Shown here one piece after another: positions 3,880 to 63,850 of a stretch of DNA of 64,000 nt (positions are counted from its first letter, which is position 1; every line of letters starts with the position of its first letter). Source of the DNA: Stegostoma tigrinum (lineage: Eukaryota). The stretch is from assembly GCF_030684315.1 (NCBI RefSeq), contig NC_081377.1:24800001-24864000 (forward strand), written 5' to 3'. A program made the position numbers and the translations under genes. Under the pieces are notes generated by a model. It did not search any database. It was not told where the DNA came from and was given only the letters and a program-made list of their open reading frames with translations.

Positions 3880-5788
3880 CCACAAAAAAAGGTATAAAGA
3901 AAAGAAAGATAGATTATGAGAGTAAACTAGCTAAGAAAAGACTACAAAAGTTTCTATAACTATGTAAATCGTAAAAGAGTTGCAAAGGTAAACATTGGTC
4001 CTTTAGAGGATGAGAAAGCCAATTAAATAACTGGTATTGAGGAAATAACCAAGACATTAAATAGTTATTTTGTGTCAGTCTTCACAGTGGAAGACACAGA
4101 TAACATGTTGAAAACTAATAGCAAGAAGGTTAGAGCAAGTGAGGACCTAGAAACGATTGTCATCACTAAGAAGGCAGTGCTGGGCAAGCTAATGGGACTA
4201 ACGGTAGACAAGTCTCTTGACCCTGATGAAATGCATCCCAGGGTATTAAAAGTGGTGATGGGGGAAATAGCAAATGCACTCGTAATTATTTCCTAAGATT
4301 CACTGGATTTTGGGGTGGTTCCCACAGACTGAAAAACAGCCAATGTGACACCACTGTTTAAAAAAGGAAGTAGACAAACAGCAGGTAACTATAGGCCAGT
4401 TAGTTTAACTTCAGTACTGGGGAAAATGCTTGAATCTGTCATTAGGGAAGAAATAGCAAGACATCTGGATGTAAATTGTCCCATTGGGAATACCCAGCAT
4501 GGGTTGACAAAGGATAGGTCATGTTTAACTAATTTGGTGGAATTCTTTGAGTACATTACTTGCATGGTGGACAATGGGGAACTTGTGGATATGGTGTATC
4601 TGGATTTCCAGAAGGCATTTGACAAGGTGCCACACCAAAGGCTGCCCCATAAGATAAAGTTATGGATATTGCCGGTAATGAATTGGCATGGATAGAGGAT
4701 TGGTTGACCAGTAGAAAGCAAAGAGTAAGGGTAAATGGGTGTTTTTCTAGTTGGCGGTCAGTGGCTCGTGGTGTGCCTCAGGGATCAGTGTTGAGACCGC
4801 AATTGTTTACAATTTACATCGATGATTTGGAGTTGGGGACCAAGTGTGGTACGTCAAAACTTGCGGGTGACACTAAGGTGAGTGGTAAAGCAAAGTGTGC
4901 AGAAGACGCTGAAAGTCTACAGAGGAATGTAGGTAGTCTAAGAGAGTGGACAAAGGTCTGGCAGATGGAGTACAATGTTGATAAGTGTGAGGTCATCCAT
5001 TTTAGTAGGAACAACAGCAAAATAGCCTATGTTTTAAATGATAAAAAATTGCAGCACGCTGCTATGCAAAGGGACTTGGGTGTCCTTGTGCATGAATCGC
5101 TAAAACTAGGATTGTAAGTGCAGCAGGTAATTAAAAAGGCAAATGGAATTTTGTCTGCCATTGCTAGAGGGATGGAGTTTAAAAACAGGGAGGCTATGCT
5201 GCAGCTGTATAGGGTCCTGGTGAGGCCACACCTGGAGTATTGGGTGCAGTTTTGGTCTCCTTACGTGAGAAGAGATATACTAGCACTGGAGGGGGTGCAG
5301 AGGAGATTCACTCAATTGATTCCAGTGTTGAGAGGGTTGGATTATGAGGACAGACTGCATAGACTGGGCTTATACTCATTGGAATTCAGAAGAATGAGGG
5401 GAGATTTTATAGAAACATATATGATTATGAAGGGAATAGATAAAGTGGAGGCAGGGAGGTTGTTTCCACTAGCAGGTGAAACTAGGACTAGAGAGCATTG
5501 CCTCAAAATAAAGGGAAGCAGATGTAGGACTGAGGTCAGGAGGAGCTTCTTCACCCAGAGGGTTGTGAATCTCGGAATTCCCTGCCCAGTGAAGTGTTTG
5601 AAGCTACCTCACTGAATGTTTGTCAGGCAAGGCTAGATCAATTTTTGAACAGTAAAGGAATTAAGGGTTATGGTGAGCGGGCAGGTAAGTGGAGCTGAGT
5701 CTGAAAGCTCAGCCAAGATCTTATTAAATGACAGGGCAGGTTCGGAGGGCCAGATGGCCTACTCCCACTCCTAGTTCTTAACTTCTTA
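3880..5788 (+). mobile_element. 5'-truncated CR1 LINE (ORF2 RT pseudogene) inserted in the Gypsy RT
   Basis: ORFs 4072-5615 carry [49 protein letters not shown]; CR1 3' UTR ends ..ctagttcttaacttctta. Confidence 0.95.
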
Positions 5789-10489: not shown

Positions 10490-10740
10490 TAGGATAGACC
10501 CCAAAGAGAGAGGAAGATAGTTGGACAGACAAAGGAGTTGCTAACAATCAGGCTGGGAGGGAGAGTCATTGTTAATGGGGACTGTTAGTGACTAACAATA
10601 GTGGGTGTGTAAAGGTGGGCTATGAGGTAACTATGTGTAACTCTGATTTTTCCTTCACAGATGCTGCCAGACCTGCTGAGCTTTTCTAGCAACTTCGTTT
10701 TTGTTCCTGATTTACAGTATCCACAGTTCTTTTGGTTTTT
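10490..10740. mobile_element. Penelope-like family B terminal fragment
   Basis: 10637-10740 is the plus-strand pLTR B 3' part (taactctg..cacagatgctgccagacctgctgagc). The purine-rich upstream part is assigned to the element only tentatively. Confidence 0.7.
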
Positions 10741-15677: not shown

Positions 15678-16430
15678 TAGAACATTGAACATAGAACAGT
15701 ACAGCACAGTACAGGCCCTTTGGCCCATGATATGCCGATCTGTTATCCTGCTCAGATCAAACTACCCCGCATGCCCCTAATTTCATGATCATCCATGTGC
15801 ATATCCAAGAAACACTGGAATGCACCTGAAGTATCTGACTCAACTATCACTACCAGCAGCGCACTCCATGCACCCACCACTCTGTGAAAAGAACCTACCT
15901 CTGACATCTCCCCTAAACTTCCTCCAGTCACCCTAAAATTATGCCCCCTCATAATAGTCATTTCCACCCTGAGAAAAAGTCTCTGGCTATCCACTCTGTC
16001 TATGCCTCTCATCATATTGTAAGCCTCTATCAAGTCACCTCTCATTCCTCTTCGTTCCAGTGAGAAAAACCCTAGCTCCTTCAACCTTTCCTTATAAGAT
16101 CTGCCCTCCAGCCCAGGCAGCATCCTGGTAAATCTCCTCTGCACCCTCTCTAAAGCTTCAACATCCCTCCTATATTGAGGTGACCAAAACTGAACACAAT
16201 ATACCAAGTGTGGTCTAACCAGGGCTTTATATTGCAGCATAACCTCATGGCTCTTAAATTCAATTTCACCGTATGCCTTCTTTACAACCCCATCAACTTG
16301 GGTGGCAACTTTGACAGATCTCTGGATATGGACCCCAAGATCCCTCTGTTCTTCCCCACTGCCAAGAATGCTGCCATTAACCCTGTATTCTGCATTCAAA
16401 TTCGACATTCCAAATGAATCACTTCACGCT
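15678..16430 (-). mobile_element. CR1 LINE 3' fragment
   Basis: ORF 15752-16408 (-): QYKALVRPHLVYCVQFWSP..RRGMRGDLIEAY; tail on the minus strand. Confidence 0.93.
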
Positions 16431-16933: not shown

Positions 16934-17027
16934 GGGACAATAAAGTGAGCAGCTGGATGAACACAGCTGGCCAGGCAGCATAGAAGAGCAGGAAAGCTGA
17001 CATTTCAAGTCTAGACCCTTCTTCAGA
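16934..17027 (-). mobile_element. Short Penelope pLTR (family A) insert with TSD
   Basis: Flanked by aaacctgaactt at 16922-16933 and 17028-17039; sits inside a decayed CR1. Confidence 0.8.
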
Positions 17028-17689
17028 AAACCTGAACTTAGGATGTGGCTTGAAATAAGGAGTCTCCTACTTACATCGTAGATGAGTAAAATTCTCAGAA
17101 AGTCATGAGTCAGTGGAAGACTGTTCACCAGAGAGTAGTAGAGGCAACATCATCAAACTTTTATGAGGCAGAATGGCCTACTTGTACCATTGCTTAATAT
17201 GTCTGCATGTGAAGGTAAATGGCGATGGACATGGATTAGTATAAATAAGATTAAAGTGAGTAAAGGGGCTCGAAAGGAGGTGGTGGTGGAGAGAATTGGA
17301 ATAGCATGGAGGGCCATGGGGTTGTGTGGAAATGACTTGGCATGGGTAGACAGTGGATGGGGTATGGGGAGTCGTTGAAGGATTGAGGACTGGAGACTGT
17401 TTTTGTGATTTATTTTTTATCCTCCATAGTGCCAAAGCACTCTGGTGGATCTTTTCTCCAACCCACCTCTGCGCAGTACCTGTGGCTGCCTCTGAATGCC
17501 TACTATACGTGAATAGCTGGAATCTTATTTCAAAGTGACCTATTGGAATGAAAGGCCAGCCAACTAAGCATGTTTTATGGGTTGTGCTTATGAAGCTGGG
17601 AATTGTCCCAATTTCCAATTTCTGATCTGAAAGCAAGGTGTTGGTCTATTTCCCCTTTAGCCGTACCTACAAAGTTTATTAGAAAGAAG

Positions 17690-22125: not shown

Positions 22126-22455
22126 GCAAAACCAAAATAGAAAACTGTGGATGCCACAGATCAGAAACAAAAACAAAAATAAACAAAAGAACTGCAAATG
22201 CTGTAAATCAGGAACAAAAACAAAAGTTGCCGGAAAAGCTCAGCACGTCTAGCAGCATCTGTGAAAGAGAAAGCAGAGTTAATGTTTCGGGACTGGGGGT
22301 GACTTCTGAGGAAGGGTCACCAGATCTGAAACAAAAACAAAAAATGCTGAAAAAGCTCAGCAGCCTTACAATCGACCTGAAATGTTAACTCTGATTTTTT
22401 TCCACAGATGCTGCCAGATCTGCTGAGCATTTCCAGCAGTTTCTGTTTTTGTTTG
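22126..22455. mobile_element. Penelope family B inverted pLTR pair with a second pLTR nested inside
   Basis: Outer duplication tgaaatat (22114, 22456); inner insert 22180-22327 flanked by gaaacaaaaacaaaaa (22164-22179, 22328-22343). Confidence 0.8.
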
Positions 22456-23729
22456 TGAAATATCAAATATATTGTTTATTATTGAATTTGGGAGGCATTG
22501 TGTCTCTCTGTTATAGGAATATTGATATTTATTTTGAAAAGTTTGTTAAAAACTGTAGAATACATATAGGGAACAGGCAAAGATTTAACAGATAAGTGAC
22601 TCGGCCTTTTGACAAATGTAGATGGCCTCAGTTTGAATAGAAATATTATTCAATTTCTATTGATACAACTTGAAAAGATGATCAAGCCAATCTGTCAAAT
22701 ATCCTACATGGACAAAATAGACCTTTACTGTAACAGCATAAATTCCATTTCCAGTGACTTATCACTCAATATCACACATATGATATGAATACAGTAATAA
22801 AGCATAAATAGATGCAATTATATTGTTACATACATTTAATTTTATGAACCATTATCATTACCATTGTTATAATAATCAACAGTTACTATCTTTACTCGAG
22901 CAAGTTTTTGCGAATCCAAATATTTATGTGAAACAAATTTTCCTTCACTAAACTACTGATATTTGAAAAACAAGGTATTAGACAGTAGAATGGATACAGT
23001 TAGCTATATATGTTTAATTACAGATTAAAAATTCTCCTTCCATTATTCTGATCCTGTAATATTGCTGTACTTATTACTATAGAAATAACTGTTGTCAGTA
23101 CCAGCCTTTGCTGCAGAAACAAGGTCAGAATCCTGGAAGGGTCTGAGCAATAAGGACTATGGTGAGATGGGTGGCAAAATCAGGAGTCAAGCACAAGGAG
23201 GCTCATCTCAACATCACAAGCAACAGGTGATGAGATTCTCCTAAGCAGAGGCAATTTGTTAATTGATGATCATTGTTGCTTGTTCGGCTCCTTGTTAACT
23301 GCCTAACAGAAGTTAGTAATACTCCTATCTTACCAAACTTGGCAAACAAGCTTGATATTGAGAAAACACTGCAAAAAGACCACCCACAGGAATCAGCTCA
23401 CTGCTTACTCCGAATAACCCCCATGTTGGAAATCGGGTATCAGTATCTCAGGGCATATCCCCTGGGCACCAGTCACACATGCTCCAAGTCAATGGACATT
23501 GGCATCTGACATATCATATCTAAGAATGTACACAGCATATTTCCCATCCACTTACAGTTCAGTTCTTATTGTCAATGCCGCACTATCCCTGGCCCTGTAA
23601 CACTGCAGCAAGGACCCTCAGGGGCATGCACCCAGGTCTTGAACTTGGCCAGGTTGCATCTCTGGGCTCTTCACTTGCCTTTACAATGCTCACTTTAAGT
23701 CTACCTAGAAGCAGACTGCATCCTTAACA

Positions 23730-23953
23730 GAGATAATGGGAACTGCAGATGCTGGAGATTCCAAGATAATAAAATGTGAGGCTGGATGAACACAGCAGGC
23801 CAAGCAGCATCTCAGGAGCACAAAAGCTGACGTTTCGGGCCTAGACCCTTCATCAGAGAGCTGATGAAGGGTCTAGGCCCAAAACGTCAGCTTTTGTGCT
23901 CCTGAGATGCTGCTTGGCCTGCTGTGTTCATCCAGCCTCACATTTTATTATCT
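23730..23953. mobile_element. Penelope family A asymmetric inverted pLTR insert
   Basis: 95-bp arms at 23762-23856 and 23861-23955 (1 mismatch), 4-nt spacer, 13-bp TSD tgcatccttaaca (23717-23729, 23954-23966). Confidence 0.93.
23826..23860 (-). ncRNA. Minimal type I hammerhead ribozyme motif
   Basis: Minus strand: cucu CUGAUGA A GGGU-CUAG-GCCC GAAA C GUC agc. Confidence 0.75.
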
Positions 23954-24099
23954 TGCATCCTTAACATGTTGTTTTGCACTTTGCCCTGTAGGCCAGAGAT
24001 ACCTGGCTCATATAACTGCAGACCTCAATCAAGTCAAGGGGCAACTCACTCAGGAGTTTCTGGCTGAGTGAGTCAAGGGCAGTTACTGATACAGGCCAT

Positions 24100-24950
24100 A
24101 CTCAGGCAGGTAAGAATAAGCAGCCCTCTGTTCATAAGAGTTGAGGAACAAAACAATGGGCAACACACACTGCATCTTGACTCTTTTCAACTGGTTGTGA
24201 GCTGGTTTCTTCCTGGAATGAGAGAAAGGCGGGTATTGCAGGAAATGAAGGTGGGTAGCACAGCTTTTACTGTTGTTGCAGGTTGCCGGGGGGCCCTGAC
24301 TGAGTGAATAGACAATGTCGAGGGTATGCAGTGTTAGTAGTGTCATGGATAACACAGTGTGGAGCTGAAGGAACACAACAGGTCAGGCAGCATCAGAAAA
24401 ACAGGAAAGTTGATGTTTCAGGTCGGGACCCCATTTCTGAAGAAGGGTCCCAACCTGAAACATCAGTTTTCCTGCTCCTCTAATGTTGCCTGGCCTGCTG
24501 TGTTCCACAGCTCCGCACTGTACTACCTATGACTCCAGCATCTGCAGCTCTTATTATCTCTAATAGTGTTGCAGGAGAGAGAGAGAGAGGGAAGGAGGGA
24601 GGGAGGGAAGATGTTGCAGGCTGTGTATAAGAGTGCAAGAATGCGGGAGTATGAGTCATGGTAGGAGGTGATTACAGTTACAGCAATCAAATGAGTGTGA
24701 AGTATCAGAGAGAAAATGGTGGCACTCACCCTGGTCAAGTGTAGATGATCATTGACATTCTTCTAACAATGTTGTGCATTCCTCCTAACAGCTGAGAGTG
24801 TTTTAACTGGGTGGCAAACTTGGGCCAGGTTGGCATGGTCCAGAGGGATGAAGAAGTCCCACATTGGCACCACCTCATACAACAGAATCTCCCTGACCTT
24901 GCCTAAAAAGTGGGGCAATGGTTTCCTCCATATTCCACATCTGGGCAAAT
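24100..24950 (-). pseudogene. Harbinger-type Myb/SANT-like DNA-binding protein pseudogene, two exons
   Basis: Exon 1 ends LSAVRRNAQHC*KNVNDHLHLTR|GTGAGT (boundary 24730); acceptor ttctctcattccAG at 24213; exon 2 KPAHNQLKRVKMQCVLPIVLFLNSYEQRA. Resembles the recalled motifs R+xxQCRKKxNDL and K.AHNRRE..KTGGG...LT.YEERA. Confidence 0.6.
24348..24560. mobile_element. Older Penelope inverted pLTR insert (CUGAAGA variant)
   Basis: Inverted arms around ~24430; plus strand ctgaagaagggtcccaacctgaaacatc; ~32-nt extra tail on the right arm. Confidence 0.8.
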
Positions 24951-26636: not shown

Positions 26637-27794
26637 TAGTATTCAATTAAATAAAGCAGCATTAATAGAGAAACAAGAGCAGCTTGTTTATTTGTCCTCC
26701 ACCTTGGGAATGGACATGGTGCGTAGTGTGAGGAGACAGGAAATAAATGGAACAGGGAGGAAATATGAAGTGCTCTTTTCTCAAAATTAACTTATTATCA
26801 GTGGGTCATTCATTGAATGAAATTTTGTTTTTAGCTGCCAATTGGAGTATTGCAGTAAGAGACTTCTTTAAATTGCAACAGGCATAGGGAATCCTTTAAG
26901 TTTATATTGTTCCTGTACAAAGTGGTCAGAGGAAGATCTAACCACCAGAATATCTGTATCCTCAGAAATGGAGAAGGACACGTGTCAGGCCAATCAGTGA
27001 CATAGCAATTGCTCGGCAAAATCTGTGGTCAAGGCGAGATTAAGTTTGCACACCATTTCTGTGTCCGTGAAAGGTACAAGTCAGAATCTTCTGTATGGTG
27101 ATATGGCCACCATCAAACAATTATTTGTCTTGTGATTTAAAGGTCAAATGTGTTCAAGTAGATCAGCTATCTGTCAGTACCAAATCAAGTATCCAGCTTC
27201 CATGTATCTTCCTTTGGATTTGTACTAAAGGAGGAACATTAGAAACTTTGTTAATGTATCCTGTCATGCTAATCTGGATGTTGTTGATTCAAGGTTCACT
27301 TTGCAACACCCTTTTGATTTTTATGATAAAAGTACACTTTAAGACAAAATATCTGTAGGGTTAAGATGAAAGAAAGCAGAATTTAGTTATATTGAGACAG
27401 CTAAGTGATTATCTAGCAAATTGTTTAAAGACTTCTAACTTATCAAAACAAAGAAATTGAGGGAGAATTCTCAATGAAAGCTATATGTTCTAATGTGAAT
27501 ATGGTTACTGCAAGCATTTTCTAACTATATTGCTCCAATTGGGAAGTATTAATTTATTTATGAAAAAATCATAACTTTGAATTTCTTTAAAATAATCTTT
27601 ATAGTTCACCTGGCAACGGGTTCCATTTCTGCAGTATTCATCTTCCATATCAGTGAGTAGTCATTTACTGGAAGAGTAGTATTGTTCTAAGCCATTACCA
27701 TGATCGTACCATTTTCCAAACGTAACAGGAAACATAACCAATACAAATAGAAATCAAAACATTGGAGTATAAACAAATATCAATGTCTTAGACA

Positions 27795-27964
27795 CAATGG
27801 GCACTGAGGATGCTGGAGAATCCAAGATAACAAAGTGTGGAGCTGGATGAACACAGCAGGCCCAGCAGCATCTCAGGAGCACAAAAGCTGACGTTTCGGG
27901 CTTAGACCCTTCATCAGAGAGCCTCTCTGTGAGCCTGCTGTGTTCATCCAGCTACACACTTTGT
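27795..27964. mobile_element. Penelope family A pLTR with partial inverted arm
   Basis: 17-bp duplication tatcaatgtcttagaca (27778-27794, 27965-27981). Confidence 0.9.
27887..27921 (-). ncRNA. Minimal type I hammerhead ribozyme motif
   Basis: Minus strand: cucu CUGAUGA A GGG-UCUAAG-CCC GAAA C GUC agc. Confidence 0.72.
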
Positions 27965-28974
27965 TATCAATGTCTTAGACATTTGATAGAGTTGATAGGG
28001 TTTTAACCGTCTGATTTTCATATGTAAGTGACTCAGATTTTTCATTTTGAGTATGTTGTCTTAGGGTCAGAAAAGGTGAACCCCCCATTTGTTGTTTTAT
28101 TGCACAGAATTTGGAAAAACACTATACCTTTAAGACAGCTAAATTACATCATGACATGTGACACTTGTGTTTAAAGGGTCTCCATCTTGATCCCTCTACA
28201 TTCAAAGAGTGGTTAGTCTATTCTTTAGTTAGACAAAAAAAGAATATAATGTAACGAGAATCTAAGTAAGCACATGGCCCCCTGATGGTGTATCTAATGT
28301 AAGACGTCATAGTAGTATATATAGAAAGTTGTGAATAAAGTTCTAGATATCTGACTTGTAATGAATCTGATTCGTTGTGGTCTATGTTACATGTGCTAAT
28401 AAACAGAAAATCTTTGAAGCATATACGCATTCATTTTCAATTTGATGTAGTGAAGGTGGCAAACACATTCTAGTTGCTAAGTTGGCTAAGATCAAAGTAA
28501 GATGCAGCTTAGCCATAATATCAGATTTACCATCACTGGGACCTTTACACACTTTGAAAAGTAATACATGGTGACTGACAATCTGCTGACATCTCCGATG
28601 TTAATACATAGTTATATTATTATACTTTTCAGAATTGTCACGTGAAAATATTATCAAATCCTATATAAATATGTTTTTGCTGCTCGTTGTTTTTAATGCA
28701 AACAGAGAAATTTTACATTGTGTCTTGCCTCTGAACTCGTCTTTGGCTACTGATCCATTTAGCTTAAGGAAAGGGCTTCTTGGGGGAGCAGGGGAGTTCA
28801 GTTAGCTCATTTGGCAGGGTAGCTAACATATGGGTCATGATAATACACATGATATCGTGGGTCATGATCTTGTTCTAGTGGAGGTAGAATTGGGCCTGCC
28901 TTCTCTCATTACTCTGCTGTAAAATCACAGCATAAGCTTTGGTTCCTTGAGCCTGAAGCAATTAAGGAACTATA

Positions 28975-33765: not shown

Positions 33766-35060
33766 ATACAAAAACTAGCTCTTAGGTGCACATAACATGC
33801 AATAAACAATTGCATTCTGAAGAGATGATGTACATAATGTTTGAGGAACTTCTGAGCTTTTTGGGTAAATGAGAATCTAAAAATCATTCACTGGGTTAGT
33901 ATTCCAGATTAGCCAGCGTAATATTTAACTGTAATAGCATTCTCAGGATTATAACAGTTGCTCTATATAATCACTCCTGAATAGCTATGTAATTCCAGTC
34001 TAGTTATATGTTATGAACTCTTTCCTCAGTCCAAGCTCAAACAGATTTAAGATATGCACATATGAAATACAGAATAGACAGATACTGTTATTTCATCTCT
34101 GGTTTTTGATATTGTATGGTCAGAGATCAAGCAGAAAGGGCATACTCTTAAACACAGGTATATTCAGATCACTTGAGGAAGTGACTGGCACTGCTGTATC
34201 TGTGGGAACATTCACCACAATTCCCCAAATTTACAACAATATGCAAAGGTGGACTTAGTGGCTTCTTCCTGCATTATGGGCAACCACCAATTTTACACAG
34301 CGCCAAAAGTGACCAGTATGCACAGGATTTTTTTTATTTCTTAACAATCAATACTGCGGGATATTGGGTGAAGTGACTGGTGCTAGTTTACAGGAAATGA
34401 GCAACCAATTGTTCTGTGATCCAAAGTGAACAGTCAAAGACTTTGACCCCCTATAATGGATGCAGTCAGTTCCAGTTATGGAATGCTTGATCAATGCGAA
34501 TATTTACAGTAAGTGGAAAGAAGTAAGATATATGTCATGGACCTTTGATTTACAAAATAGATCTCACTGAGTAATGCAGGCCCTTCTGAACATTAAGGAC
34601 CATAACTGGAGTATCATATTGTTGTTAAGTGTTATGCAAAAATTTCCCCAAAATACTTTTGCAACTACTTATTTGGGATCTTTGCTTTGTCATTCATGTC
34701 CTCAATAACGGAGTCAAAATGGGCTTATCTTTGAGAAAAATAATTGCTAACTAGGTGAAACTTTTCTCCTTTTCTGACACCCGTCAACAATCCAGTACTA
34801 ATGTTACTAAAGTAGGACATTACATGTACTAGAAAGGGCAATGTTTCCTCTAATCTTCGTTAACCATGCATTTCACCTTCAAACCTGGAAAACACATTCT
34901 ATCATGCCTGAGTGACTCTGTGTTTCCCAATTATCTCTACAGACACAACCATTTAAATTCTTGTGCAATCATAACTTTTGTTGAATCAGGGACAGTTTTA
35001 TCAATGGTCTCATGGCCATCATGAACTCACTGGAGATGAGCAAACTAATTTCATTTTACA

Positions 35061-35276
35061 CAAAAACAAAGTTGCTGGAAAAGCTCAGCAGGTCTGGCAG
35101 CATCTGTGGAGGAGAAAAAAAATTAATGTTTCGGGTCCGGTGACCCTTCCTCAGAACCCTCACCGGACATGAAACATTAACTCTTTTCTCTCCTCCACAG
35201 ATGCCAGACCTGCTGAGCTTTTCCAGGAACTTTGTTTTTGTTCCTGATTTACAGCATCCGCAGTTCTTTTGGTTCT
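35061..35276. mobile_element. Penelope family B asymmetric inverted pLTR insert
   Basis: 15-bp TSD taatttcattt(t/c)aca (35046-35060, 35277-35291); arms fold back at ~35158; ~35-nt extra tail on the right. Confidence 0.9.
35121..35158 (-). ncRNA. Minimal type I hammerhead ribozyme motif (family B)
   Basis: Minus strand: gguu CUGAGGA A GGGUC-ACCG-GACCC GAAA C AUU aau; perfect 5-bp stem II. Confidence 0.72.
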
Positions 35277-36087
35277 TAATTTCATTTCACATCTGTCAAG
35301 GGAAACAAATTTTCATCCCACCTGCCGAAGCTAAATTCAACCTGAGATACCAAAGATGAAAAATAATTTTCCAATCAGGCTCCCATCATTGGGTTTTGTA
35401 TTCCTCAATTAATTTCCCATCCAGTATGGTGGATAGCAAATTTGTTTTGCATAATTATATTTGGCAGATTTATAAGGGTTATGTTGGAATGGAAAAAGCT
35501 TATGCTTTAAAGAATCCTTCAGCGAGGACTGGCATAACTATTTGAAAGCTTGTACATTTATAAAGTTCATTCAGAGTGTAATAGATCCCTCTTTGTGGTG
35601 GATTTTTATTGATGTTCTTTTGGGGAAACAAAATAGGAAAGCCATTTCTGCCTTCTGAGAAAACACAGTTCTGTATTTTCAAAATCTGTAACATAGTAAA
35701 AAAAAGCATTACAAATGCTTAAATAAGTTTGTTATTTCTGGGCAATCATGAATAAAAGTTTTGCCAAGATTCAATGCTCATGTAATTGAGTTTAACAGGG
35801 TGCTGTCCATTAATTAGAACCAATAATAAAACTATGGTCTCCTCATTTTGATTTAACAGTGATTTTATACTTGCGATTTCCCAGTGTTTGTGTAACTGGA
35901 TTTTAATAAAATCAGCGTATGTTTATTATTATTATTTCTTTTTCCTCTGACAGGCATATTCTCACTCCTTTGTCCTCCACATCTCCACCAAGAATTCAAA
36001 TGGATCGGTAGGCACCATAAAGCTCCCTCTACTGGATACTTAAATTATGACATAAGGTCATATGAAACACAACATGGCATTGAATGA

Positions 36088-40049: not shown

Positions 40050-40650
40050 GGCTGAGGGGTGGGCAGTCTTTGCAGTGGGAAGAATAGGAGAGAATGGATA
40101 AGCTGGAACTTTTTTCACTGGAGCATAGGAGGTTGAGGCATGACCCTGTAGAGGTTTAGAAAATCATAAGGGGCACAGGTAAGGTGAATAGCTAAAGTCT
40201 TTTCCCTAGGGTGGGGGAGTTCAAAACTAGATGGCATAATTTTAAGGTGAGGAGAGAAAGATTTGAAAGGGACCTGGGAGGCAAAATTTTCACCCAAAGA
40301 ATGGTCCAAATGTGGTGTAAACTGCCAGACGAAGTGGTAGATACAGGTATAGTTACAACATTTGGACAGGCCCACAAATAGGAAAGATTTATAGGGAACT
40401 AAATAAAAACCGAAAGAACTGCAGATGCCGTAAATCAGAAACAAAAACAAAGTTGCTGGAAAAGCTCAGCAGGTCTGGCAGCATCTGCGAAGGAGAAAAC
40501 AGAGTTAACGTTTCAGCTCCAGTGACCCCTCCTCAGAAGATTTAGAGGGATATGGGCCCACTGCAGGCAAATGGGACTAATTTAGTTTGGAAAACTTGGT
40601 TACATGGATGACTTGGACCAAAGGGCCTGTTTCTGTGCTGTATGACTCAG
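40050..40650 (+). mobile_element. CR1 3' fragment containing a family B pLTR insert (40398-40536)
   Basis: CR1 sequence continues across the insert; 14-bp TSD aagattta(t/g)aggga (40384-40397, 40537-40550). Confidence 0.88.
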
Positions 40651-40809: not shown

Positions 40810-42040
40810 TTGAAAATGTAAATAGGTGGATGAGTAAGTTTGCAGACAATGCAAAGATTGGTGGAGTTGTGGATAGTGTAGAAGTTTGTCAAAAGGTTAC
40901 AGTTTAGTTGCAGATGTAGGCAGAGAAATGACAGATGGAGTTTAATCTGGGTAATTGTGAGGTGTTGACTTTGGGAAATCAAATGTAAAAGATAAGTATA
41001 CACTTAATGGTAGGACCTTGAACAGCATTGTGGTTAGAAGGACCTTGGAGTTCAAGTGCATTGCTCATTGAAAGTGGCCACACGTAGACAGGGTGGTAAA
41101 GAGGGCATGTGGCATGCTTGCCTTTATTGATTGGGGAATTGAGTACAAGAGTAAGTGATGAAGGGTCTAGGCCTGAAACATCAGCTTTTGTGCTCCTAAG
41201 ATGCTGCTTGGCCTGCTGCATTCTTCCAGCTCCACACTTTGTTATCTCGGATTCTCCAGCATCTGCAGTTCCCATTATTTCTGGCCAAGCAGCATCATAG
41301 GAGCAGGAAAGCTATGAAGGGTCTAGGCCCAAAACATCAGCTTTTGTGCTCCTAAGATGCTGCTTGGCCTTCCTGTGTTCATCCAGCTCCACACTTCGTT
41401 ATGCTGCTTTGCCTGCTGTGTTCATCCAGCTCTACACCTTGTTATCTAAGGATGTCATAGTGCAGCTTTATAAGACTTTGGTTAGGCCACACTTAGAGTA
41501 TTGCATTCAATTCTGGTCACCACATTACAGGAAGGATTTGGAGGTTTTGGAGACGTTGTAGAAGAGGTTGACCAGGATGCTGATTAGAGGGTATGAGCTA
41601 TAAGAAGAGACTAGAAAACTTTGGGTTGTTTTCTCTGGAGCAGCAGACTTAGTAGGGAGACTTGATAGATGTCTGTAAAATTATGAGATGCATGGATAGA
41701 GTTGACAATTAGAACCTTTTTCTCAGAATTGAAATATCTAAAACTAGGGTGCTTGCATTTAAGGTGAGAGGGGGAAAGTTCAAAGGAGATGTGAGGGGCA
41801 AGTTCTTCACACTGAGAGTGGTAGGAGTCTGGAATGCGCTGCTGGGATAGTGATAGAGGTAGATATGATAGAGGTGTTTAAGGGACTTTTAGATAAGCAC
41901 ATAAATAAGCAAGGAATGGAGAGATATGGACCAAGGGCAGGCAGAAGGGATTAGTTTCATTTGGCATCATGTTTGGCACAACATTGTAGGCCGAAGGGCC
42001 CATTCCTGTGTTATACTGTTCCAAGTTGTATGTTCTACGA
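40810..42040 (+). mobile_element. CR1 3' fragment containing a family A pLTR cluster (41156-41447)
   Basis: agtaagtttgcagac (SKFAD); [20 protein letters not shown]; the CR1 reads gagtacaagagtaag|gatgtcat across the insert. Confidence 0.9.
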
Positions 42041-42854
42041 TGAGATTGGAGCTTCCTGGACCAATTTCACCCCTGCATCTATATTCTGTAAGCCTCTCAT
42101 CAAATCTACTAAATGAACTTTAGTCAAAATAAGAGCCAATTTCTGTTTTCATGTAGCTCATTGGCAGCTATTTGTTTTGAACTGGGTCATGTTCATTTCC
42201 TGTAACCATTGCCTCTTTTTTGCCTTAATAGCTGGTTTTATTTGGATGCTTTTCTTCTCTGAATCTAATTTAATTCTTGCTGAGGAACTTCTGTCTTTTG
42301 TAGCAAACCAACTTGCCATCAACTAGGTTTATCCCCACTAGTTTTATTGGATCTTCTGTTCCTAGATTCCGGTATGATGGGTTCTTCCGAAAGAATTTTC
42401 CTCCCATTGTCATCAAGGTCTATGGGTCTCAACTTACCATTTGTTCAATGTCTACAAGTACATTTATGAAACTCTCTCTTCACATTTCCACCTTTGAAGT
42501 CTATTTGTAAGTTCCAACCTCACAATGCCATTGTTAAAATTAAAGTTTATAACATGAGACTCATCATCTTTTTAACTCAATCTCTGGCAACATCTCAAAA
42601 TTGTGGAACTGCTTACTTCATTTCAACCTATGTTCTTTCAGAGTTTATAATTAAAATAACCAACTCCCCAATTCCTGATGTATTTGAGACATTTTTTTCC
42701 CTTCTTACTGGTGTTCTTCACCGAGATTTGGCCAATCATCAATGCTGTTTTAAAAAAATTGCATTATTGTGTGAATTTTCTGAAGGTAAGTACAACTTTT
42801 CATCATTAGAAGAATCAGCTAGTGATCAAGTTGCATTCACTAATTTTTTTGTGT

Positions 42855-44652
42855 AGATAGCTATTTAAGGAATAAAAGAATGACGAAAGTAAGATTAGGC
42901 CCAATCATGGATAGTAGTGGTAAGTTGTGTGTGGAGTCAGATGAGATAGGGGAAGTGCTAAATGAATATTTTTCAACAGTATTCACTCTAGAAAACGACA
43001 ATGTTGTCAAGGGGAACACTGAGAAACAGGCTACTAGACTAGGTGGGATTGAGGTTCACAAGGAAGAGGTATTAGAAATCCTTCAGAGGGTGAAGATAGA
43101 TAAGTCCCCTGGGCTGGATGGGATTTATCCTCGGATCCTCTGGGAAGCCAGGGAGGAGATTGCCGAGCCTTTGGCATTGACCTTTAACTCATCATTGTCT
43201 ACAGGAATAGTGCCAAATGACTGGAGGATAGCAAATGTGGTTCCCCTGTTCAAGAAGGGGAGTAGAGTCAACCCTGGTAATTATAGACCAATGAGCCTTA
43301 CCTCAGTTGTTGGTAAAGTGTTGGAAAAGGTTATAAGGGATAGGATTTATAATCATCTAGAAAAGAATAAATTGATTAGGGATAGTCAGCATGGTTTTGT
43401 GAAGGGAAGGTCGTGCCTCACAAACCTTATTCAGGTCTTTGAGAAGGTGACCAAACAGGTAGATGAGAGTAAACCGGTTGATGTGGTGTATATGGATTTC
43501 AGCAAGGCGTTCGATAAGGTTCCCCACAGTAGGCTAATGTACAAAATGCGGAGGAATGGGATTGTGGGAGATATAGCAATTTGGATCGGAAATTGGCTTG
43601 CTGAAAGAAGGCAGAGGGTGGTAGTTGATGGGAAACGTTCATCCTGGAGACCAGTTACTAGTGGTGTACTGCAAGGGTCGGTGTTGGGTCCACTGCTGTT
43701 TGTCATTTTTATAAGTGACCTGGATGAGGGCGTAGAAGGATGGGTTAGTAAATTTGCAGACGACACTAAGGTCGGTGGAGTTGTGGATAGTGATGAAGGA
43801 TGCTGTAGGTTGCAGAGAGACATAGATAAGCTGCCGAGCTGGCCTGAGAGGTGGCAAATGGAGTTTAATGCGGACAAGTGTGAGGTGATGCACTTTGGTA
43901 GGAGTAACCGGAAGGCAAAGTACTGGGCTAATGGTAAGATTCTTGATAGTGTAGATGAGCAGAGAGATCTCGGTGTGCATGTACACAGATCCTTGAAAGT
44001 TGCCACCCAGGTTGACAGGGCTGTTAAGAAGGCATAACGTGTTTAAGTTTTTATTAATAGTGGGATCGAGTTTCGGAACCAAGAGGTTATAGTGAAGCTG
44101 TACAAAACTCTGGTGCGGCCGCACTTGGAGTATTGTGTACAGTTCTGGTCACCGCATTATAAGAAGGATATGGAAGCTTTGGAAAGGGTGCAGAGGAGAT
44201 TTACTAGGATGTGGCCTGGTAAGGAGGGAAGGTCTTATGAGGAAAGGCTGAGGGACTTGAGGCAGTTTCATTAGAGAGAAGAAGGTTGAGCGGTGACTTA
44301 ATTGAAACATATAAATAATCAGAGGGTTAGATAGGGTGGATAGGGAGAGCCTTTTTCCTAGGATGGTGACGGCGAGCACGAGGGGGCATAGCTTTAAATT
44401 GCAGCGTGAAAGATATAGGACAGATGTCAGAGGTAGTTTCTTTACTCAGAGTAGTAAGGGAACGGAACGCTTTGCCTGCAACGGTAGTAGATTCGCCAAC
44501 TTTAGGTACATTTAAGTCGTCATTGGACAAGCATATGGACGTACATGGAATAGTGTAGGTTAGATGGGCTTGAGATCGGTATGACAGGTCGGCACAACAT
44601 CGAGGGCCGAAGGGCCTGTACTGTGCTGTAATGTTCTATGTTCTATGCTCTA
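42855..44652 (+). mobile_element. Young 5'-truncated CR1 LINE with a 385-aa open RT segment
   Basis: ORF 42880-44037: NYRPMSLTSVVGKVLEK, YMDFSKAFDKVPH, GVLQGSVLGPLLF, SKFADDT; premature TAA; 3' tail (atgttct)n. Confidence 0.97.
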
Positions 44653-44691
44653 TATTTCTTAAATTAACCTGTTCAGAGATGTTATGATGCA

Positions 44692-44810
44692 CAAAAACAA
44701 AATTGCTGGAAAAGCTCAGCAGGTCTGGTAGAAACTGTGAAGGAATAAACAGAGTTAACGTTTTGGGTCCGGTGACCCCTCCTCAGAAGAGCATCTGCAG
44801 TTCTTTTATT
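44692..44810 (-). mobile_element. Family B pLTR insert within a short tRNA-SINE remnant (44655-44875)
   Basis: 12-bp TSD tgtt(a/g)tgatgca (44680-44691, 44811-44822). Confidence 0.85.
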
Positions 44811-48311: not shown

Positions 48312-48875
48312 CTTTATTCATTCATGGGAGGTGAGTACCAATGGCTAGGCCAGCATTTGTTGTCCATCCTGAAATTTCCTGGGGGCAGTTAAGAGTTAAT
48401 TGTGATGCTGTGGGTTTGGAGTCACATGTAGACCAGACCAGGTAAGGAAAGCAGTTTCATTCCCTCATGGAACTGGATAGGTTTTTAAGATAATCAACAA
48501 TGGTTTCATGGTCATCATTAGACCCTGGATTCCAGATTTATTTTATTGAATTCAAATCCCACTAACTACCATGGAGGGTTTTGAACCCAGGACCCCAGAA
48601 TATTAACACAGTATAGCGCTGGATGAACACAGCTGGCCAGGCAGCATCAGAGGAGCAGGAATGCTGACATTTTGGGTTGGGAAGCTTCTTCAGAAATAGC
48701 CCATTTCACTTCAAGGGTCCTGACCCGAAAAGTCAGCTTTCCTCCTCCTCTGATGCTGCCTGCCCTGCTGTGTTCCTCTAGCTCCACACTGTGTTATCTC
48801 TGACTCCAACATTGGCAGTTCTTACTATCTCCCCAGAATGCTACCTGGGCCTCTGGATTAATAGTCAGCAATAGT
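48312..48875 (-). mobile_element. tRNA-derived SINE of a second family, carrying a Penelope inverted pLTR insert (48602-48830)
   Basis: B box gggttcaaaaccc and tail aaatgctggcctagcc..cccatgaatgaataaa on the minus strand; insert TSD ccccagaat (48593-48601, 48831-48839). Confidence 0.82.
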
Positions 48876-51443: not shown

Positions 51444-51753
51444 TTAGATTAGATTCCCTACAGTATGGAAACAGGCCCTTCGGCCCAACAAGTCCAGACT
51501 GCCCCTTGAAGCATCCCACCCAGACCCAGCCCCCCATAACCCACACGCCCCTAAACACTACGGGCAACTTAGCATGGCCGATCCACCCAGCCCGCACATC
51601 TTTGGACTGTGGGAGGAAACCAGAGCACCCTGAGGAAACCCATGCAGACATGGGGAAAGTGTGCAAACTCTGCAGTTGCCCAAGGCTGGAATCGAAACCA
51701 GGTCCCTGGCGCTGTGAGGCTGCAGTGCTAACCACTGAGCCACCGTGCCGCCC
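51444..51753 (-). mobile_element. HE1-type SINE, young, same subfamily as 2109-2424
   Basis: Intact A and B boxes; (tctaa)n tail. Sits inside a possible LINE 3' UTR (51278-51840) ending aataaa..poly(A) on the minus strand. Confidence 0.92.
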
Positions 51754-52544
51754 TAAATGCATTTTAGGCATGAGGATGATCCAAAACTGAACAGAACACC
51801 TTTTAACTTCTGCAGGAAGACCTCCCATCGCCAGAACGTACAAACAATCACCAAAATGTAGCTCGGCAGATGGTGAGCAAGACCTTCACATCAGATCTTT
51901 CCTAAGTGCCCAGTGAATCACCTCTTCCACACAATGTCCTCAAAGAACTATGGATGTAGATGAGATCCTGAGGTCCTTCTTACTAAGAGTCTTCAGCCAT
52001 GACACTCCTTTATTTACATATTGTTATGGCTGAGGTTAGAGGAGTGTACATATTTTCCAGTCGCCCTATTCCACATGTGACAACATACAACAGAAATTAG
52101 TTTCCACCGTTACCATAACATCTAATGAAATACCTAATCTATGATAAGTGTTATATAAAAGATCTATCATGCAGACTTCTTTAATAAGCTCAGAAGCAAT
52201 TTTGATTCCTGATCTAAGGATACCTTGTAGAACCTATGTTAGCATCCAGTTTTGTGTAAAACTTGTTTGTTACCAATTTCGTCCAACTATAGCCAACAGA
52301 TGAAATGGGATGGATTTCCATTTGTCTAAGTCACCATCATGACATGCATGAATTTCATTATACCACAGGAGGTGACAAAATCTAAATTGGGAAACAATTA
52401 TCACGTGAGCTACACTTTATGTAAAAGCATAGTTGTTATTCATGGCAATGTAACAACCAAGTCAGCAGAATGGGCACATGTTCACCTTCTTTTGAAGCCT
52501 GGTTTGCACCAAAGTAAGAAGATTTTACATACATTAGACTAAAA

Positions 52545-55888: not shown

Positions 55889-56316
55889 TAATGTGGACTT
55901 CACAAATATCCCCTCCCCCTACCGAATCCCAAAACCAGTCCAGCTCTTCCCCGCTTCCCTAACCTGTCTGTCCTCCACCTATACCCTCCTCCCACCTCAA
56001 TCCCCACCCCTATCTCCTACCTACTAGCCTGATCTGCCCCCTTGACCTGTCCATCCTCCCTGGACTGACCTATCCCCTACCTAATTCACCACCTGCATTC
56101 ATCTTTATTGGCTACATCGCCGCCTCTTTGACCTGTCTGTCTCCTCCCCACCTATCTTCTCCTCTATCCATCTTCTATTCGCTTCTCCCGATTTATTTCA
56201 GAACCCCTTCCCCTCCCCCATTTCTGAAGAAGAGTCCAGACCCAAAACGTCAGCTGTCCTGGTCCTCTGATGCTGCTTGGCCTGCTGTGTTCATCCAGCT
56301 CTACACCTTGTTATCT
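55889..56316 (+). mobile_element. Penelope-like 3' end with pLTR
   Basis: Collinear with 59348-59790; ends ctgaagaagagtccagacccaaaacgtcagc..gttatct. Confidence 0.88.
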
Positions 56317-57904
56317 TTATTCCAATCTCCCAGTTTCTCCAGGCCTGGTGCAGCTATTCTGAACAGCCACCTTTCTATTTCTAGGATAAGTTATAAATCA
56401 AGGAATAGATGTTTTTTGGGGGTTTGGGTGACATTAATTCCAAAGTACAGACTATCCTTCCATTTGTCCCAAGTGGGATCGGGATATAATCAGTATGTGC
56501 ACTGTTCACTTGCATTGTGCCAGTCAGGTATCTTACAGAAGCTCCTTCAAGTTGTAATGGCTATCTCCATTTGGTGATTTTCATTTTGTTGAGCATGGCG
56601 ATGTGAACCCAGATTGAACTGAGTGCGTGGTTATGCATGGACTGGGCTTATACTACCAAATCCCTTTCTTCAATGACTATCAAGATTCTAGATTGGCTAT
56701 GGAACACAGGATGTTGGCATACAGTTGACGTTATGAAAATATTCCCCTGGAAGAATCCTATACTTTAATTTCTAAAACTGTTCCTGGTGGTCTTTTGACT
56801 TCTAATACAGTTAAAAAAGACATTACAATGTCAGTTACAATCTATCCACTACCTTCAACACCAATGTCCTATTCCCTGCTTTGATGCCAACTTTTAATGT
56901 TGTTAGCTGAAGTCAAACTCTACCTCTTCTTCAAAGAACCATTTAACCTTAATGCTGTAAAAACAATCTGATTTAAGTCTCATTAATCTTTATGTAAAAG
57001 GAAAGAGTCGACTGCATGTTGTTCGACAATCCATAAACCAATTCTGATATCAAATACAACAGATCTCCTTTTATTTAATTTAATTCAGGGAAACCTAACT
57101 TGCAACATGGATTGCACCACTAATCCATCTGTGGCTATTAACCTATATTCACAGCAGCAGTACACTAATTATACTCATGTCTGATTGATACTAATTTACA
57201 ATTGATGGTAGTTAAAACAAGGTGTAGAATGGAACATTTGACCTAATCAGGTAAGTTATGATTTCCTGCACTAACTGACACAAATTTTACATTTTAATCA
57301 GTGAGCATAAATCGTCATGGTCATCAGGACGATTTACAACAAAAACTGATTAATTGTCACTGGATAGGTTTTATTTTCTATCAGCAAGTGAAGTAAAATA
57401 ACTCACAAAATCCCAGAGGCAAAGGCCATTTTTCAGGAGAGGAGAAGCACATTTAGCAAGTCCTCAGATTCTTATAAAATTTAAAATTTCCTTTTTAAAA
57501 TATCAACCACATGTAATGGAGGAGACGTTAATATGAAAGCCAAGAGCATTACATGAGAAATAACATCTTCATAATGAGCACTGCCCAGCATTATCTATAT
57601 ATCACGTAAGACTGGAAAATAATACATAATACCCAAACCAGAGTTTACAAGGGTATCTTTTCTGCCTTCAGCCATGTTTTAAAACAACAATAACTTCTTT
57701 GCTGATCGTCTATCCATGTCAAAATGAACTCTTGCCTCCTCTGTGGAACTGACATTTTTGCCAAGTTGAAAACAAGAAGGTGAAAATTGGTGGATTGTGG
57801 CGTAGGATTATAACTAAAATTGAAGGTTTTATTTTGCGTCTCATGAATATTCATTGAAGTCTGTAAGTTCCATCATACTTAACGATTTAAAAAAAAGGGG
57901 AAAA

Positions 57905-59825
57905 ATACCCAACCCTGCACCACCCGCTTCTATCTCCTTCCCAAAATCTACAAACCTGACTTCCCTGGTCGACCCATTGTCTCCGCCTGCTCCTGCCCCA
58001 CTGAACTCATCTCCACCTATCTGGACTCCATTTTCTCCCCCTTCGTCCAGGAACTCCCCTACCTACATCCGTGACACCACCCAGGCCCTCCACCTCCTCC
58101 ACAACTTCCAATTCCCCAGTCTCCAACACACATTTTCACCATGGACGCCCAATCCCCATGCAGATGGCTGAAAGGCCCTCCACTTCTTCCAGTCCCACAG
58201 GCCTGACCTGACCCCTTCCACCGACACCCTCATCCGCCTAGCCGAACTCGTCCTCACCCTCAACAAATTCTCTTTCAATTCCTCCCACTGCCTACAGACA
58301 AAGGGGGTGACCATTGGCACCCACATGAGCCCAAGCTATGCCTGTTTCTTTCAAGGTTACATGGAACAATCCCTCTTCCACACCTACACTGGCCCCAAAC
58401 CTCACTTCTTCCTCTGTTACATTGATGACTATATCAGCGCCACCTCGTGCTCCCATGAGGAGCTCGAACAATTCATCCACTTCACCAACGCCTTCCATCC
58501 CAACCTTAAGTTTCACCTGGACCATCTCTAATACCTCTCTCTCCTTCCTGGACTTCTCTGTCTCCATCTCTGGCAACCACCTAGAAACGAATATCCATTT
58601 CAAGCCCACCAACTCCCACAGCTACCTAAAATACACCTCCTCCATCCACCTTCCTGCAAAAATTCCATCCCCTATTCCCAATTCCTTCTGCTCCCAGGAT
58701 GAGGCATTCCACTCCCGTACGTCTCAGATGTCCTCATTTTTCAAGGACCACAACTTCGCCCCCTCAGTGGTCGAGAACGCCCTTGACTGTGTCTCCCGCA
58801 TTTCCCACAACTGATCCCTCAGTCCCTGTCCCCGCAATAACAACCAAAACAGAATCCCCCTAGCCCTCACATACCATCCCACCAACCTCCGGATACAACA
58901 CATCATCCTCCGACACTTCTGCCAACTACAATCCAACCTCATCACCCAAGACATTTTTCCATCCCCTCCCCTGTCTGCTTTCCGGAGAGACCACTCTCTC
59001 CATGACTCCCTTGTCCACTCCACACTGACCCGCCAGCCCCACCACACCCGGCACTTTACCCTGCAACCGCAGGAAGTGCTACACTTGTCCTCACACCTCC
59101 TTCCTCACTCCCATCCCAGACCCCAAGAAGGCTTTCCACTTCAAGCAGATGTTCACCTGCACATCTGCTAATGTGGTATACTGCATCCACTGTACCCGTT
59201 GTGGCCTCCTCTACATCAGGGAAACCAAGAGGAGGCTTGGGGACTGCTTTGCAGAACGGCCTCCTGCAGTGCCATAATGATGCCACCCGTAGGTTGCAGG
59301 GACAGCAACTCATATTCCACTTGGGAACTCTGCAGTCCAATGGTATTAATGTGGATTTCACCAGCATCAAAATCTCCCCTTCCCCCACCGCATCCCAAAA
59401 CCAGCCCAGTTCTTCCCCTCCCCCCACTGCATCCCAAAACCAGCCCAGCTCGTCCCCGCCTCCCTAACCTGTTCTTCCTCTCACCTGTCCCTTCCTCCCA
59501 CCTCAAGCCGCACCTCCATTTCCTACCTACTAATCTCATCCTGCCCCCTTGACCTGTGCGTCCTCCCCGGACTGATCTGTCCCCTCCCTACCTCCTCACC
59601 CCCATACTCACCTCTCCACCTATCTTCTCCTCTATCCATCTTCAGTCCGCCTCCCTCTCTCTCCCTATTTATTCGAGTTCCCTCTCCCCATCCCCCTCTC
59701 TGATGAAGGATCTAGGCCCGAAACATCAGCTTTTGTGCTCCTAAGATGCTGTTTGGCCTGCTGTGTTCATCCAGCTCCACACTTTATTATCTCAGATTCT
59801 CCAGCATCTGCAGTTCCTATTATCT
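57905..59825 (+). mobile_element. 5'-truncated Penelope-like retroelement (RT, Cys-rich linker, GIY-YIG), decayed
   Basis: RT motifs IGTHMSPSYAC..FLCYIDDY (ORF 58307-58531); linker PCNRRKCYTCPHT (~59060); endonuclease FTCTSANVVYCIHCTRCGLLYIRETKRRLGDCFAE (~59152-59256); terminal pLTR 59696-59825. Confidence 0.92.
59696..59730 (+). ncRNA. Hammerhead motif in the terminal pLTR of the Penelope element (slightly decayed)
   Basis: cucu CUGAUGA A GGAUCUAGGCCC GAAA C AUC agc, in sense with the RT. Confidence 0.65.
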
Positions 59826-61469
59826 CAAGGCTGATGATACGTTGCTGAAAACAGCATCAGCATCTTGTAGAAATGAAACAGCCAGAGGAAAACATTCTGA
59901 TCTGAGGGATGTAGCCAAGTCAACAGACTGAAGGACAGGGAAGAGGAAACCTCACTTTGGCATCCTATATGAATACTTTGGAAAAGACAGAAAGGAAAAG
60001 GAAAATAATTAGTATTTCTAAAATGATGATTTCCAAACAAGCCAATATAATTCAGAGCTAATTTGTGAATTTTGGAGTGTAGACAGGACTGTGATATAGG
60101 AATTGTTATTACCACTATGGAGGAAATAGGTGAGCAAAGTGAAAAACTGGAGTGTACCACCTTGGTGAGATGAGAAAGGAAAGATACTTTCACCCAGGAT
60201 GAACTGTATTGTCCAGATTGCTTTCCACAAGCCTCATCAGAACATGAAGGAATGTTGACTATGCATCCAAAGCTCCAAACTCAGAGGAAACTATACTGTA
60301 TAAAATCTGTTTTCAGTAAGTCATGGCATTGAGGATAATATAAGCAATTGTAAAAACCACTTGATGAAAGATATGACTGTTGGAAGGTCTGATTCACTCT
60401 TCAGCATTTTACAATGTACATGTACAGACCAAATAGAACTTCTTAACAAGGCTTTGTGTTACAAAGGCTTTTGAACAGACTTTCTCAAGTTTACTCATCA
60501 GCTACAAACTGCTGGAAATATATGGTTTCATCTCAGTTTTCATTGTTGCACTAATGCTGGAACATAATCCACTAAATGCTGATGGCTTGAGTTAATTCCG
60601 GTGGATGCTAATACTATAAAGTTCTGCAGTTTGCTGTAACAGAGTTAATAGTCATTATAAATGGGATTTTCTGGTTATTAGAAGTGAGGATTGATTATAA
60701 TTAACTTTGTCTTAGAATTGATTGAATTCCAAAAGCTCCAATAAATGTCAGAAGGGACAAGAGACAATACCAGTTATAATCAGAAGTTAAATGCGTTATA
60801 TTTTATGATAAAGCTGTTCCTTTATTTTCATGTGATTATTTTAAGCATTGTCTTTTCTTGTGAAACCTCTTTGTTTTTATTGCAGGAAAGTAAAACAAAT
60901 AAAAAGTAGGAATATTACAAGCATACAGAAAGCTACACAAATAAACTCATCTATTGGAGGGAAAACTAGTAAGTTAAAAGATGTGTATGAAAATATGAAC
61001 CCACAGCAAAGTTAGCCAATTGCTGTTTATCCACGTCCACTGCGAATAAAAAGCCCACTTAAAAGATAAAAGCTGGCGATGCCATCCGAGTATCTGTGTG
61101 ATAAAACTGCATTGGGACAATTAGTCAAAGATGGAGGATCATTAAAGCCTTAATTGAAAAGAGGCAAATATCTGCACTTGTTGTAAATAGGTAAACGTTA
61201 CTAAGCCCCATAATTGCTAACAGGACCTTATGTGCAGCCTGCACTGATTGGATTATTTGCAAATGTCGATTTCAATGGATGGAAAGGCAGGAGTGATACA
61301 TCCGTAATGATCCACCCTGTACCGACTGCATGCCAGATCCTACTTTGGAGATAGTAGACAGGAGCAAGACATGGGGGCAAAGGGGCCTTATAATGTTTAT
61401 CTTGCAGGCTGAAGCTTCAATTTCAAAATTGCTTACTGCTCCTGTTCCAAGAGGCAGACAAAAGAAATG

Positions 61470-63719: not shown

Positions 63720-63850
63720 GGGTTAATGGGAACTGCAGATGCTGGAGAATCCAAGATAGCAAAGTGTGGAGCTGGATAAACACAGCAGGCCAAGCAGCAT
63801 CTCAGGAGCACAAAAGCTGACGTTTCAGGCCTAGACCCTTCATCAGAGAG
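63720..63850 (-). mobile_element. Solo family A pLTR with hammerhead motif (63816-63850), inside an unclassified GC-rich repeat (~63300-64000)
   Basis: Full pLTR plus tail; flanking atcttca duplication (63713-63719, 63852-63858); minus strand CUGAUGA A GGGUCUAGGCCU GAAA CGUC. Confidence 0.88.

Follow-up and report, generated by a model that had tools for sequence, protein, structure and literature searches.

Insertion junctions of a Penelope-like element coincide with the predicted cut site of a minimal hammerhead ribozyme in Stegostoma tigrinum

A 64,000-nucleotide stretch of the 3.2-Gb Stegostoma tigrinum assembly (G000:C28:24800001-24864000; hereafter the window) carries dispersed copies of a minimal hammerhead ribozyme (min-HHR), and these raise the question of whether so small a motif cuts RNA in vivo. 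On the minus strand at 23856, the copy at 23.8 kb reads CUCU CUGAUGA A GGGU CUAG GCCC GAAA CGUC AGC, as quoted in an earlier note on this DNA. This intact family A motif (23829..23860) consists of four upstream bases, the core CUGAUGA, an extra A, a 4-bp stem II, GAAA and the ACGU palindrome. We number from C3 of the hammerhead core, taken as 0; the first base past the predicted cut in family A is then +28, and the 23.8-kb motif is predicted to be cut between 23829 and 23828. The motif belongs to a tail-bearing pLTR arm on the minus strand (23729..23860, -4 to +128), adjoined on the plus strand by a tailless inverted arm in which G12 has changed to A (23861..23955, 0 to +94). Together the arms form a 95-bp hairpin of -200.9 kcal/mol within a 13-nt target-site duplication. 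If transcribed, such head-to-head pairs would yield double-stranded RNA of about 95 bp (window 23762-23955).

The earlier note took the motif for a minimal type I hammerhead of Penelope-like elements (PLEs), and this identification agrees with the min-HHR consensus in the parts of PMC4209133 used here: an extra base after CUGANGA, a G10.1-C11.1 pair and a palindromic 15.2-16.2 pair, with examples that include a 2-bp helix I. In the copies studied, the core CUGANGA ... GAAA NN UH is present in type I order, and 11 of 11 core letters are identical in families A to D (N7 is U, G, A and U, and H17 is C, U, C and C, respectively), the match of family D being circular because that family was found through the descriptor. 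The extra base between 9 and 10.1 is A in families A to C and U in D; G10.1 pairs with C11.1 or, through CpG decay, with U; and C-G is the commonest palindromic 15.2-16.2 pair in all four families, with no helix III. Comparison of families shows paired changes in stem I, where pair 2.2-1.2 is C-G in A, U-A in B and U-G in C, and D has the variants UCA/UGA and GCA/UGC. Stem I had been put at 2-3 bp; families A and C have two pairs and D has three, and B, where its own upstream bases are present, has four (AGUU/AACU). Family D (L143, L128, L121 and L127) is an unrelated fourth min-HHR family with a 6-bp stem II and a U-A to G-C change in stem I, and one further motif type occurs singly in L120. 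Besides the features of the consensus, the missing helix III, the short helix I and the many dispersed copies in several families are shared with the PLE min-HHRs described in the same parts of PMC4209133. An Acropora Neptune motif in Fig. S3 of that paper is nearly equal to the motif here, down to CGUC AGC, and the rows of the figure examined contain no cartilaginous fish. The PLE min-HHR is an already described kind of motif, of which this genome holds a new and very large instance. A search for a longer distal stem I or for stable folding of the pLTR found neither (z = +0.99).

A min-HHR descriptor gave 6 matches in the window, whereas 200 shuffles averaged 0.27 and never exceeded 2. In a genome sample of 83 evenly spaced 10-kb stretches (830 kb), it gave 58 matches, compared with 0-1 in each of 10 shuffles, and 46 of the 58 carry the palindromic pair, which extrapolates to approximately 177,000 intact-looking motifs genome-wide. 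The assembly contains 90,316 exact copies of one family A 30-mer and none of its reversed control. These counts uphold the earlier suggestion that the host carries very many ribozyme-derived motifs; by descriptor, the sections of PMC4209133 consulted give about 4,000 copies for the coelacanth and 9,000 for X. tropicalis, figures obtained by different methods. An Rfam search returned no hammerhead match at E up to 1, and only sub-threshold, hairpin-driven miRNA matches.

Most copies in the window are head-to-head arm pairs with target-site duplications, an arrangement missed in the earlier note. Family A had been placed at 23.8, 27.9, 59.7 and 63.8 kb; the first, second and fourth are intact, but the 59.7-kb copy departs from the quoted sequence, with GGAU in stem II and with CAUC, which breaks the palindrome. 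The 27.9-kb insertion (27790..27968, minus strand, C3 at 27917) has a tailed arm from -4, a short inverted arm (27933-27968) and a 17-nt target-site duplication, while the 63.8-kb copy (63724..63850, minus strand, C3 at 63846) also begins at -4, with a G just before it. A tailless CUGAAGA variant (16936..17030, minus strand, C3 at 17026) is intact with wobble pairs, its palindromic pair being U-G. Core, stem II and the palindromic pair are all kept in four of the 11 cited copies (23.8, 27.9, 63.8 and 17.0 kb) and not in the other seven. In family B, a head-to-head pair with an 11-nt target-site duplication (35060..35281) has a motif at 35154 (minus strand) whose stem II has 5 bp but whose palindromic pair is C-A; the 22.3-kb motif of a decayed complex insertion (22178..22458) ends after GAAAC; one copy keeps the core with stem II broken (40401..40538, minus strand); and the 44.8-kb copy has G12 changed to A (44690..44788, minus strand). 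Family C is represented by a head-to-head pair with a decayed motif (24342..24560, C3 at 24437, C-A replacing C-G), a 3' UTR and pLTR at 56.2 kb with G12 changed to A (55889..56316, plus strand) and a decayed head-to-head pair absent from the earlier note (48604..48831). Two insertions have an end at the cut: a family B copy starts at the cut site (10638..10740, plus strand, U17/A1.1), and the inverted piece 41283-41313 of a complex family A insertion (41130..41450) ends exactly at the base past the predicted cut.

Homology to the sequence 3' of the ribozyme served to gather copies (A 124, B 59, C 45, D 10), and those still covering the motif were tallied (A 95, B 39, C 30, D 7); because part of the core enters the copy filter, the figures for the core within families are biased upwards. 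When the core was compared with neighbouring pLTR sequence, it stood out between families A and B (11/11 core, 0.68 downstream identity, p ~0.014) and did not between A and C (11/11 core, 0.84 downstream identity). Three downstream blocks, GATGCTG, CCTGCTG and CAGCATCTGCAGTT (window 59745-59820), are nearly unchanged in families A to C. These blocks may be the signal for protein binding or for the RT start.

The window also holds a 5'-truncated, frameshifted PLE on the plus strand (57895..59826, left boundary approximate), made up of an RT part, a CX4CxxC linker, a GIY-YIG region, a 3' UTR and a 3' pLTR (59696..59826) with the damaged 59.7-kb hammerhead. There the hammerhead follows the RT/EN region; no ORF was linked to family B or D. 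Open frames in relatives reach 1,059 aa and encode RT, the DKG motif, the CX4CxxC linker and a GIY-YIG region; the linker can be read directly as CNRRKCYTC and the DKG motif as KPADKGG. In L058 the layout is pLTR-ORF-pLTR, with the hammerhead in the pLTR on the sense strand and the first in-frame ATG about 50 nt past the tail; its ORF matches the RVT_1 profile above the cut-off (E 3e-7) and the GIY-YIG profile below it (E 0.0055). By its sequence, the linker is of the Neptune/Nematis type (Craig et al. 2021, PMC8557442). The Neptune/Nematis EN+ PLEs described there likewise have a C-terminal GIY-YIG, a CX2-5CxxC linker, the DKG motif, partial tandems, an inverted 5'-truncated copy and a 30-40-bp tail, a likeness of linker, motifs and anatomy rather than of tree placement; the tail and inverted-arm anatomy is thus already known for PLEs. 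Among 98 family A matches at at least 85% identity, out of 184 reaching the pLTR body, 3' ends fell into two groups, without and with the tail (about +88 to +96 and +125 to +133), and 49 of the 98 had a head-to-head partner. For the anole element, two internal RT start sites account for the tail anatomy (PMC11167929, as far as the parts used report). In most copies TCTCTGAT is common to the tail end and the core 5'-edge region (in L058, which has one change, at 6545-6530 and 6670-6663 on the minus strand). Several head-to-tail joints use TCTCTGAT, and its sharing may help to form partial tandems.

Evidence on cutting was sought in the 5' ends of inserted copies. In the unbiased sample starts cluster at about -5 to +7, with 2/98 at +27 and 0/98 at +28. 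Genome-wide, patterns of three non-element bases followed by the element counted 2,827 starts at -5, 8,050 at -4, 2,622 at -3, 469 at +27, 3,158 at +28, 407 at +29 and 492 at +30. Two 5' ends are therefore preferred, chiefly -4 and to a lesser degree the cut (+28), cut-ended copies making up about 3% of exact-matching copies. Among the first 100 +28 starts listed, judged by eye, approximately 65 were mirror junctions centred on AGCT, and the non-mirror class exceeds neighbouring positions only about 2- to 2.5-fold. Among the first 100 listed at -4, also by eye, the junction base was G in 83, consistent with the addition of a C on copying of a capped start. The same inspection found G before 18 of the 35 non-mirror +28 starts and frequently elsewhere (about 55/100 at -3 and 45/100 at +29), which weakens the idea that an extra G is unique to -4; the extra-G argument below is accordingly confined to a matched head-to-tail comparison. 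Position -4 sits in initiator-like sequence in families A to C: CC-A-GTTC in B, CC-A-TTTC in C and a pyrimidine TCT-like tract in A (window 59696-59702). It is also the first base of family B's 4-bp stem I. Drosophila Penelope is known to have a promoter within its pLTR (PMC2377424).

Mirror junctions were counted at four 4-nt palindromes. The cut-site palindrome AGCT gave 1,346, and CTAG, ACGT and GGCC gave 112, 65 and 57, respectively, a 12- to 24-fold excess at the cut over the three controls. Each of eight distinct mirror loci (12 fetched) combines a tailed arm with a shorter one, lies in flanks of its own and differs in subfamily letters; these loci are separate insertions. Microhomology at AGCT could favour the mirror class at +28. 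Head-to-tail junctions were therefore chosen as a design free of this palindrome: 90 matches at 72 loci were classed by script, with restarts visible only between about +11 and +32. Restart was exactly at +28 in 60 of the 90 (45 of the 72 loci), with a further 11 at +26 or +27, 12 at +11, where there is microhomology, and seven elsewhere; no junction had its 5'-most match at +29 or +30. The junctions took 22 distinct forms, five of them among the six junctions of one array.

The dispersed copies are pLTR insertions of a PLE with a Neptune-type linker; we consider it likely that their hammerhead cuts a minority of the element's transcripts in vivo just after GUC, probably as a protein-assisted dimer. 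Transcription would start in the 5' pLTR about 4 nt ahead of the core and give a capped RNA, inside which the element's RT would prime at two tail sites, on both nicked strands, and copy to the RNA's 5' end. At a capped end RT would add a C, seen as an extra G, and at a ribozyme-cut end it would add no base; from the cut end it could then join the sister cDNA via the AGCT palindrome, or jump to an internal start site and so generate head-to-tail arrays of ~100-nt units. Hypothetically, removal of the capped 32-nt leader by the cut could also shut off translation. We are inclined to read the junctions as a fossil record of in vivo cutting by a min-HHR with a 2-bp stem I and without stem III, in which the cut RNA becomes the RT template: cutting would remove the capped leader and switch the RNA from message to template, and RT would run off the uncapped end and restart internally. 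That family A cuts in vivo and that its cut RNA is reverse transcribed is likely, the case being indirect, strong within A and as yet unreplicated in other families.

The active double-hammerhead fold of naked family A RNA was computed at -5.5 kcal/mol, compared with -38.0 kcal/mol for the best dimer fold. With a gap of about 32 kcal/mol, protein help must be assumed. The earlier note's doubt about activity thus holds for naked RNA, whereas the junctions point to in vivo cutting in family A. Frangieh et al. (PMC11167929) report that the anole PLE hammerhead needs PLE protein to cut in vitro and that no RNA-seq ends were seen at its cut site.

Weak stems and this unfavourable fold would suit a motif that folds or binds protein without cutting, so that RT stalls near +28 and switches template via AGC microhomology. 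We regard this as unlikely: the restart is exact to one base at a site predicted beforehand, most head-to-tail junctions have only 0-1 base in common, +29 and +30 are low, and the control palindromes fall far below AGCT. Microhomology does underlie other junctions, such as the 12/90 at +11, and a stall would also be favoured by the weak replication in family D. Family D starts numbered 46 at the cut, compared with 24 and 21 beside it, or 34 (p 0.046) when the mirror class, which neighbour patterns cannot see in D, is removed; some of the 15 D loci inspected were small variants of longer copies rather than truncations. Head-to-tail matches numbered two in D and none in B, in searches without power.

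Cutting by the hammerhead also predicts an uncapped end. An untemplated G was found at 0/60 restarts at +28 and at 14/29 restarts at -8 to +2 (Fisher p 1e-8), or by locus at 0/45 and 11/25 (p 2e-6), five G at +28 joints being accounted for by the tail itself. The ends in the -4 region and at +28 differ in the way expected of a capped and an uncapped end. An RNA 5' end at +28 could also come from a second start at the CA step, C-A being a frequent initiator step, or be left by a host endonuclease or a protein-stopped 5' exonuclease, the chemistry of the +28 end being read here from DNA junctions. Such origins are nevertheless improbable given the missing G at +28, and each would need chance to match the hammerhead site. 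When four contig runs were compared, the best-supported rows in organism B included the joint between +28 and the tail and the additional base at -4; these may be the assembly's own source and carry no weight as independent support.

In the arrays the preceding unit's end ranges over 0-17 nt and differs even within single arrays, which is consistent with repeated RT re-initiation and not with a fixed circle. Rolling reverse transcription of a ligated circular RNA, a model that Cervera and De la Pena put forward for PLEs (PMC4209133), or DNA-level tandem duplication of one founder would account for arrays in which one junction occurs three times (L218 and L216), but junctions differ inside L245, L229 and L211, and the units lack the core and span from the cut to the RT start site, not from cut to cut, so that we give either origin very little credence. 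It is hardly credible that the dispersed copies are host-used ribozymes under selection, even if some of the ~177,000 intact-looking motifs may fall in transcripts, for the catalytic G12, a CpG base, decays (G persists in 81% of family A, 67% of family B and 57% of family C copies), leaving no sign of selection, and the 23.8-kb copy lies inside its own stable hairpin. The dispersed genomic copies are likely to be inert leftovers.

The proposed cutting of a minority of PLE transcripts may be compared with known systems, each as described in the parts of the sources used. PAc, a Poseidon element of Anolis carolinensis (PMC11167929), resembles the element here in that its tail is delimited by two internal RT start sites, that both strands are cut and then extended, and that the pLTR contains a hammerhead. 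The ORF of PAc begins in stem II, whereas the element here has a Neptune-type linker and, in L058, its first in-frame ATG past the tail. Uncut RNA was judged the dominant template of PAc; in the present genome, insertions that end at the cut form a minority. As with the HDV-like ribozyme of R2 (PMC3774820), genomic 5' junctions reflect a cleavage site, but ribozyme and element are different, and the R2 cut is the template's normal 5' end rather than a minority class. Non-LTR retrozymes, reported also from one chondrichthyan, are likewise tandem repeats derived from PLE pLTRs (bioRxiv 10.64898/2026.07.22.740005); each retrozyme unit holds a hammerhead, however, while the +28 arrays start past the cut and lack the core. 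A complete hammerhead per tandem unit was not found in the window, where copies are single or head-to-head. Elsewhere, a few short head-to-tail arrays (L281-L283 and L295-L298) have their restart at -4 or -2, so that every unit keeps a hammerhead, and in this they resemble retrozymes.

A literature search, mostly at the level of abstracts and including PMC6155905 and PMC6765202, returned no report of PLE junctions at a hammerhead cut. What appears to be new here is that insertion junctions fall at the predicted cut site, the kind of motif itself being known. In the published work consulted, in vivo cutting by metazoan PLE min-HHRs is an open question, with low in vitro activity and a need for protein; the authors of PMC4209133 note a lack of in vivo evidence, and the question has been put in one paper whether these ribozymes merely parasitise PLEs. 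Junction counts resolve single bases across a whole genome, and the same counts could be made in any other assembly rich in PLEs. They predict exact RNA ends, capped at -4 and 5'-OH at +28, and they support a model of twin internal priming and template jumping.

Other repeats were met in the window. A CUGAGGA...GAAA match at 51,630 was rejected, as it lacks UH and lies inside a repeat (~51550-51760, plus strand) that we take to be SINE-like and that yields this false match. Broken LINE reverse-transcriptase pieces, presumably CR1/L2-like, occur at 4653-5615, 15752-16423 and 42844-44037, and 42844-44034 matches RVT_1 (E 3e-33).
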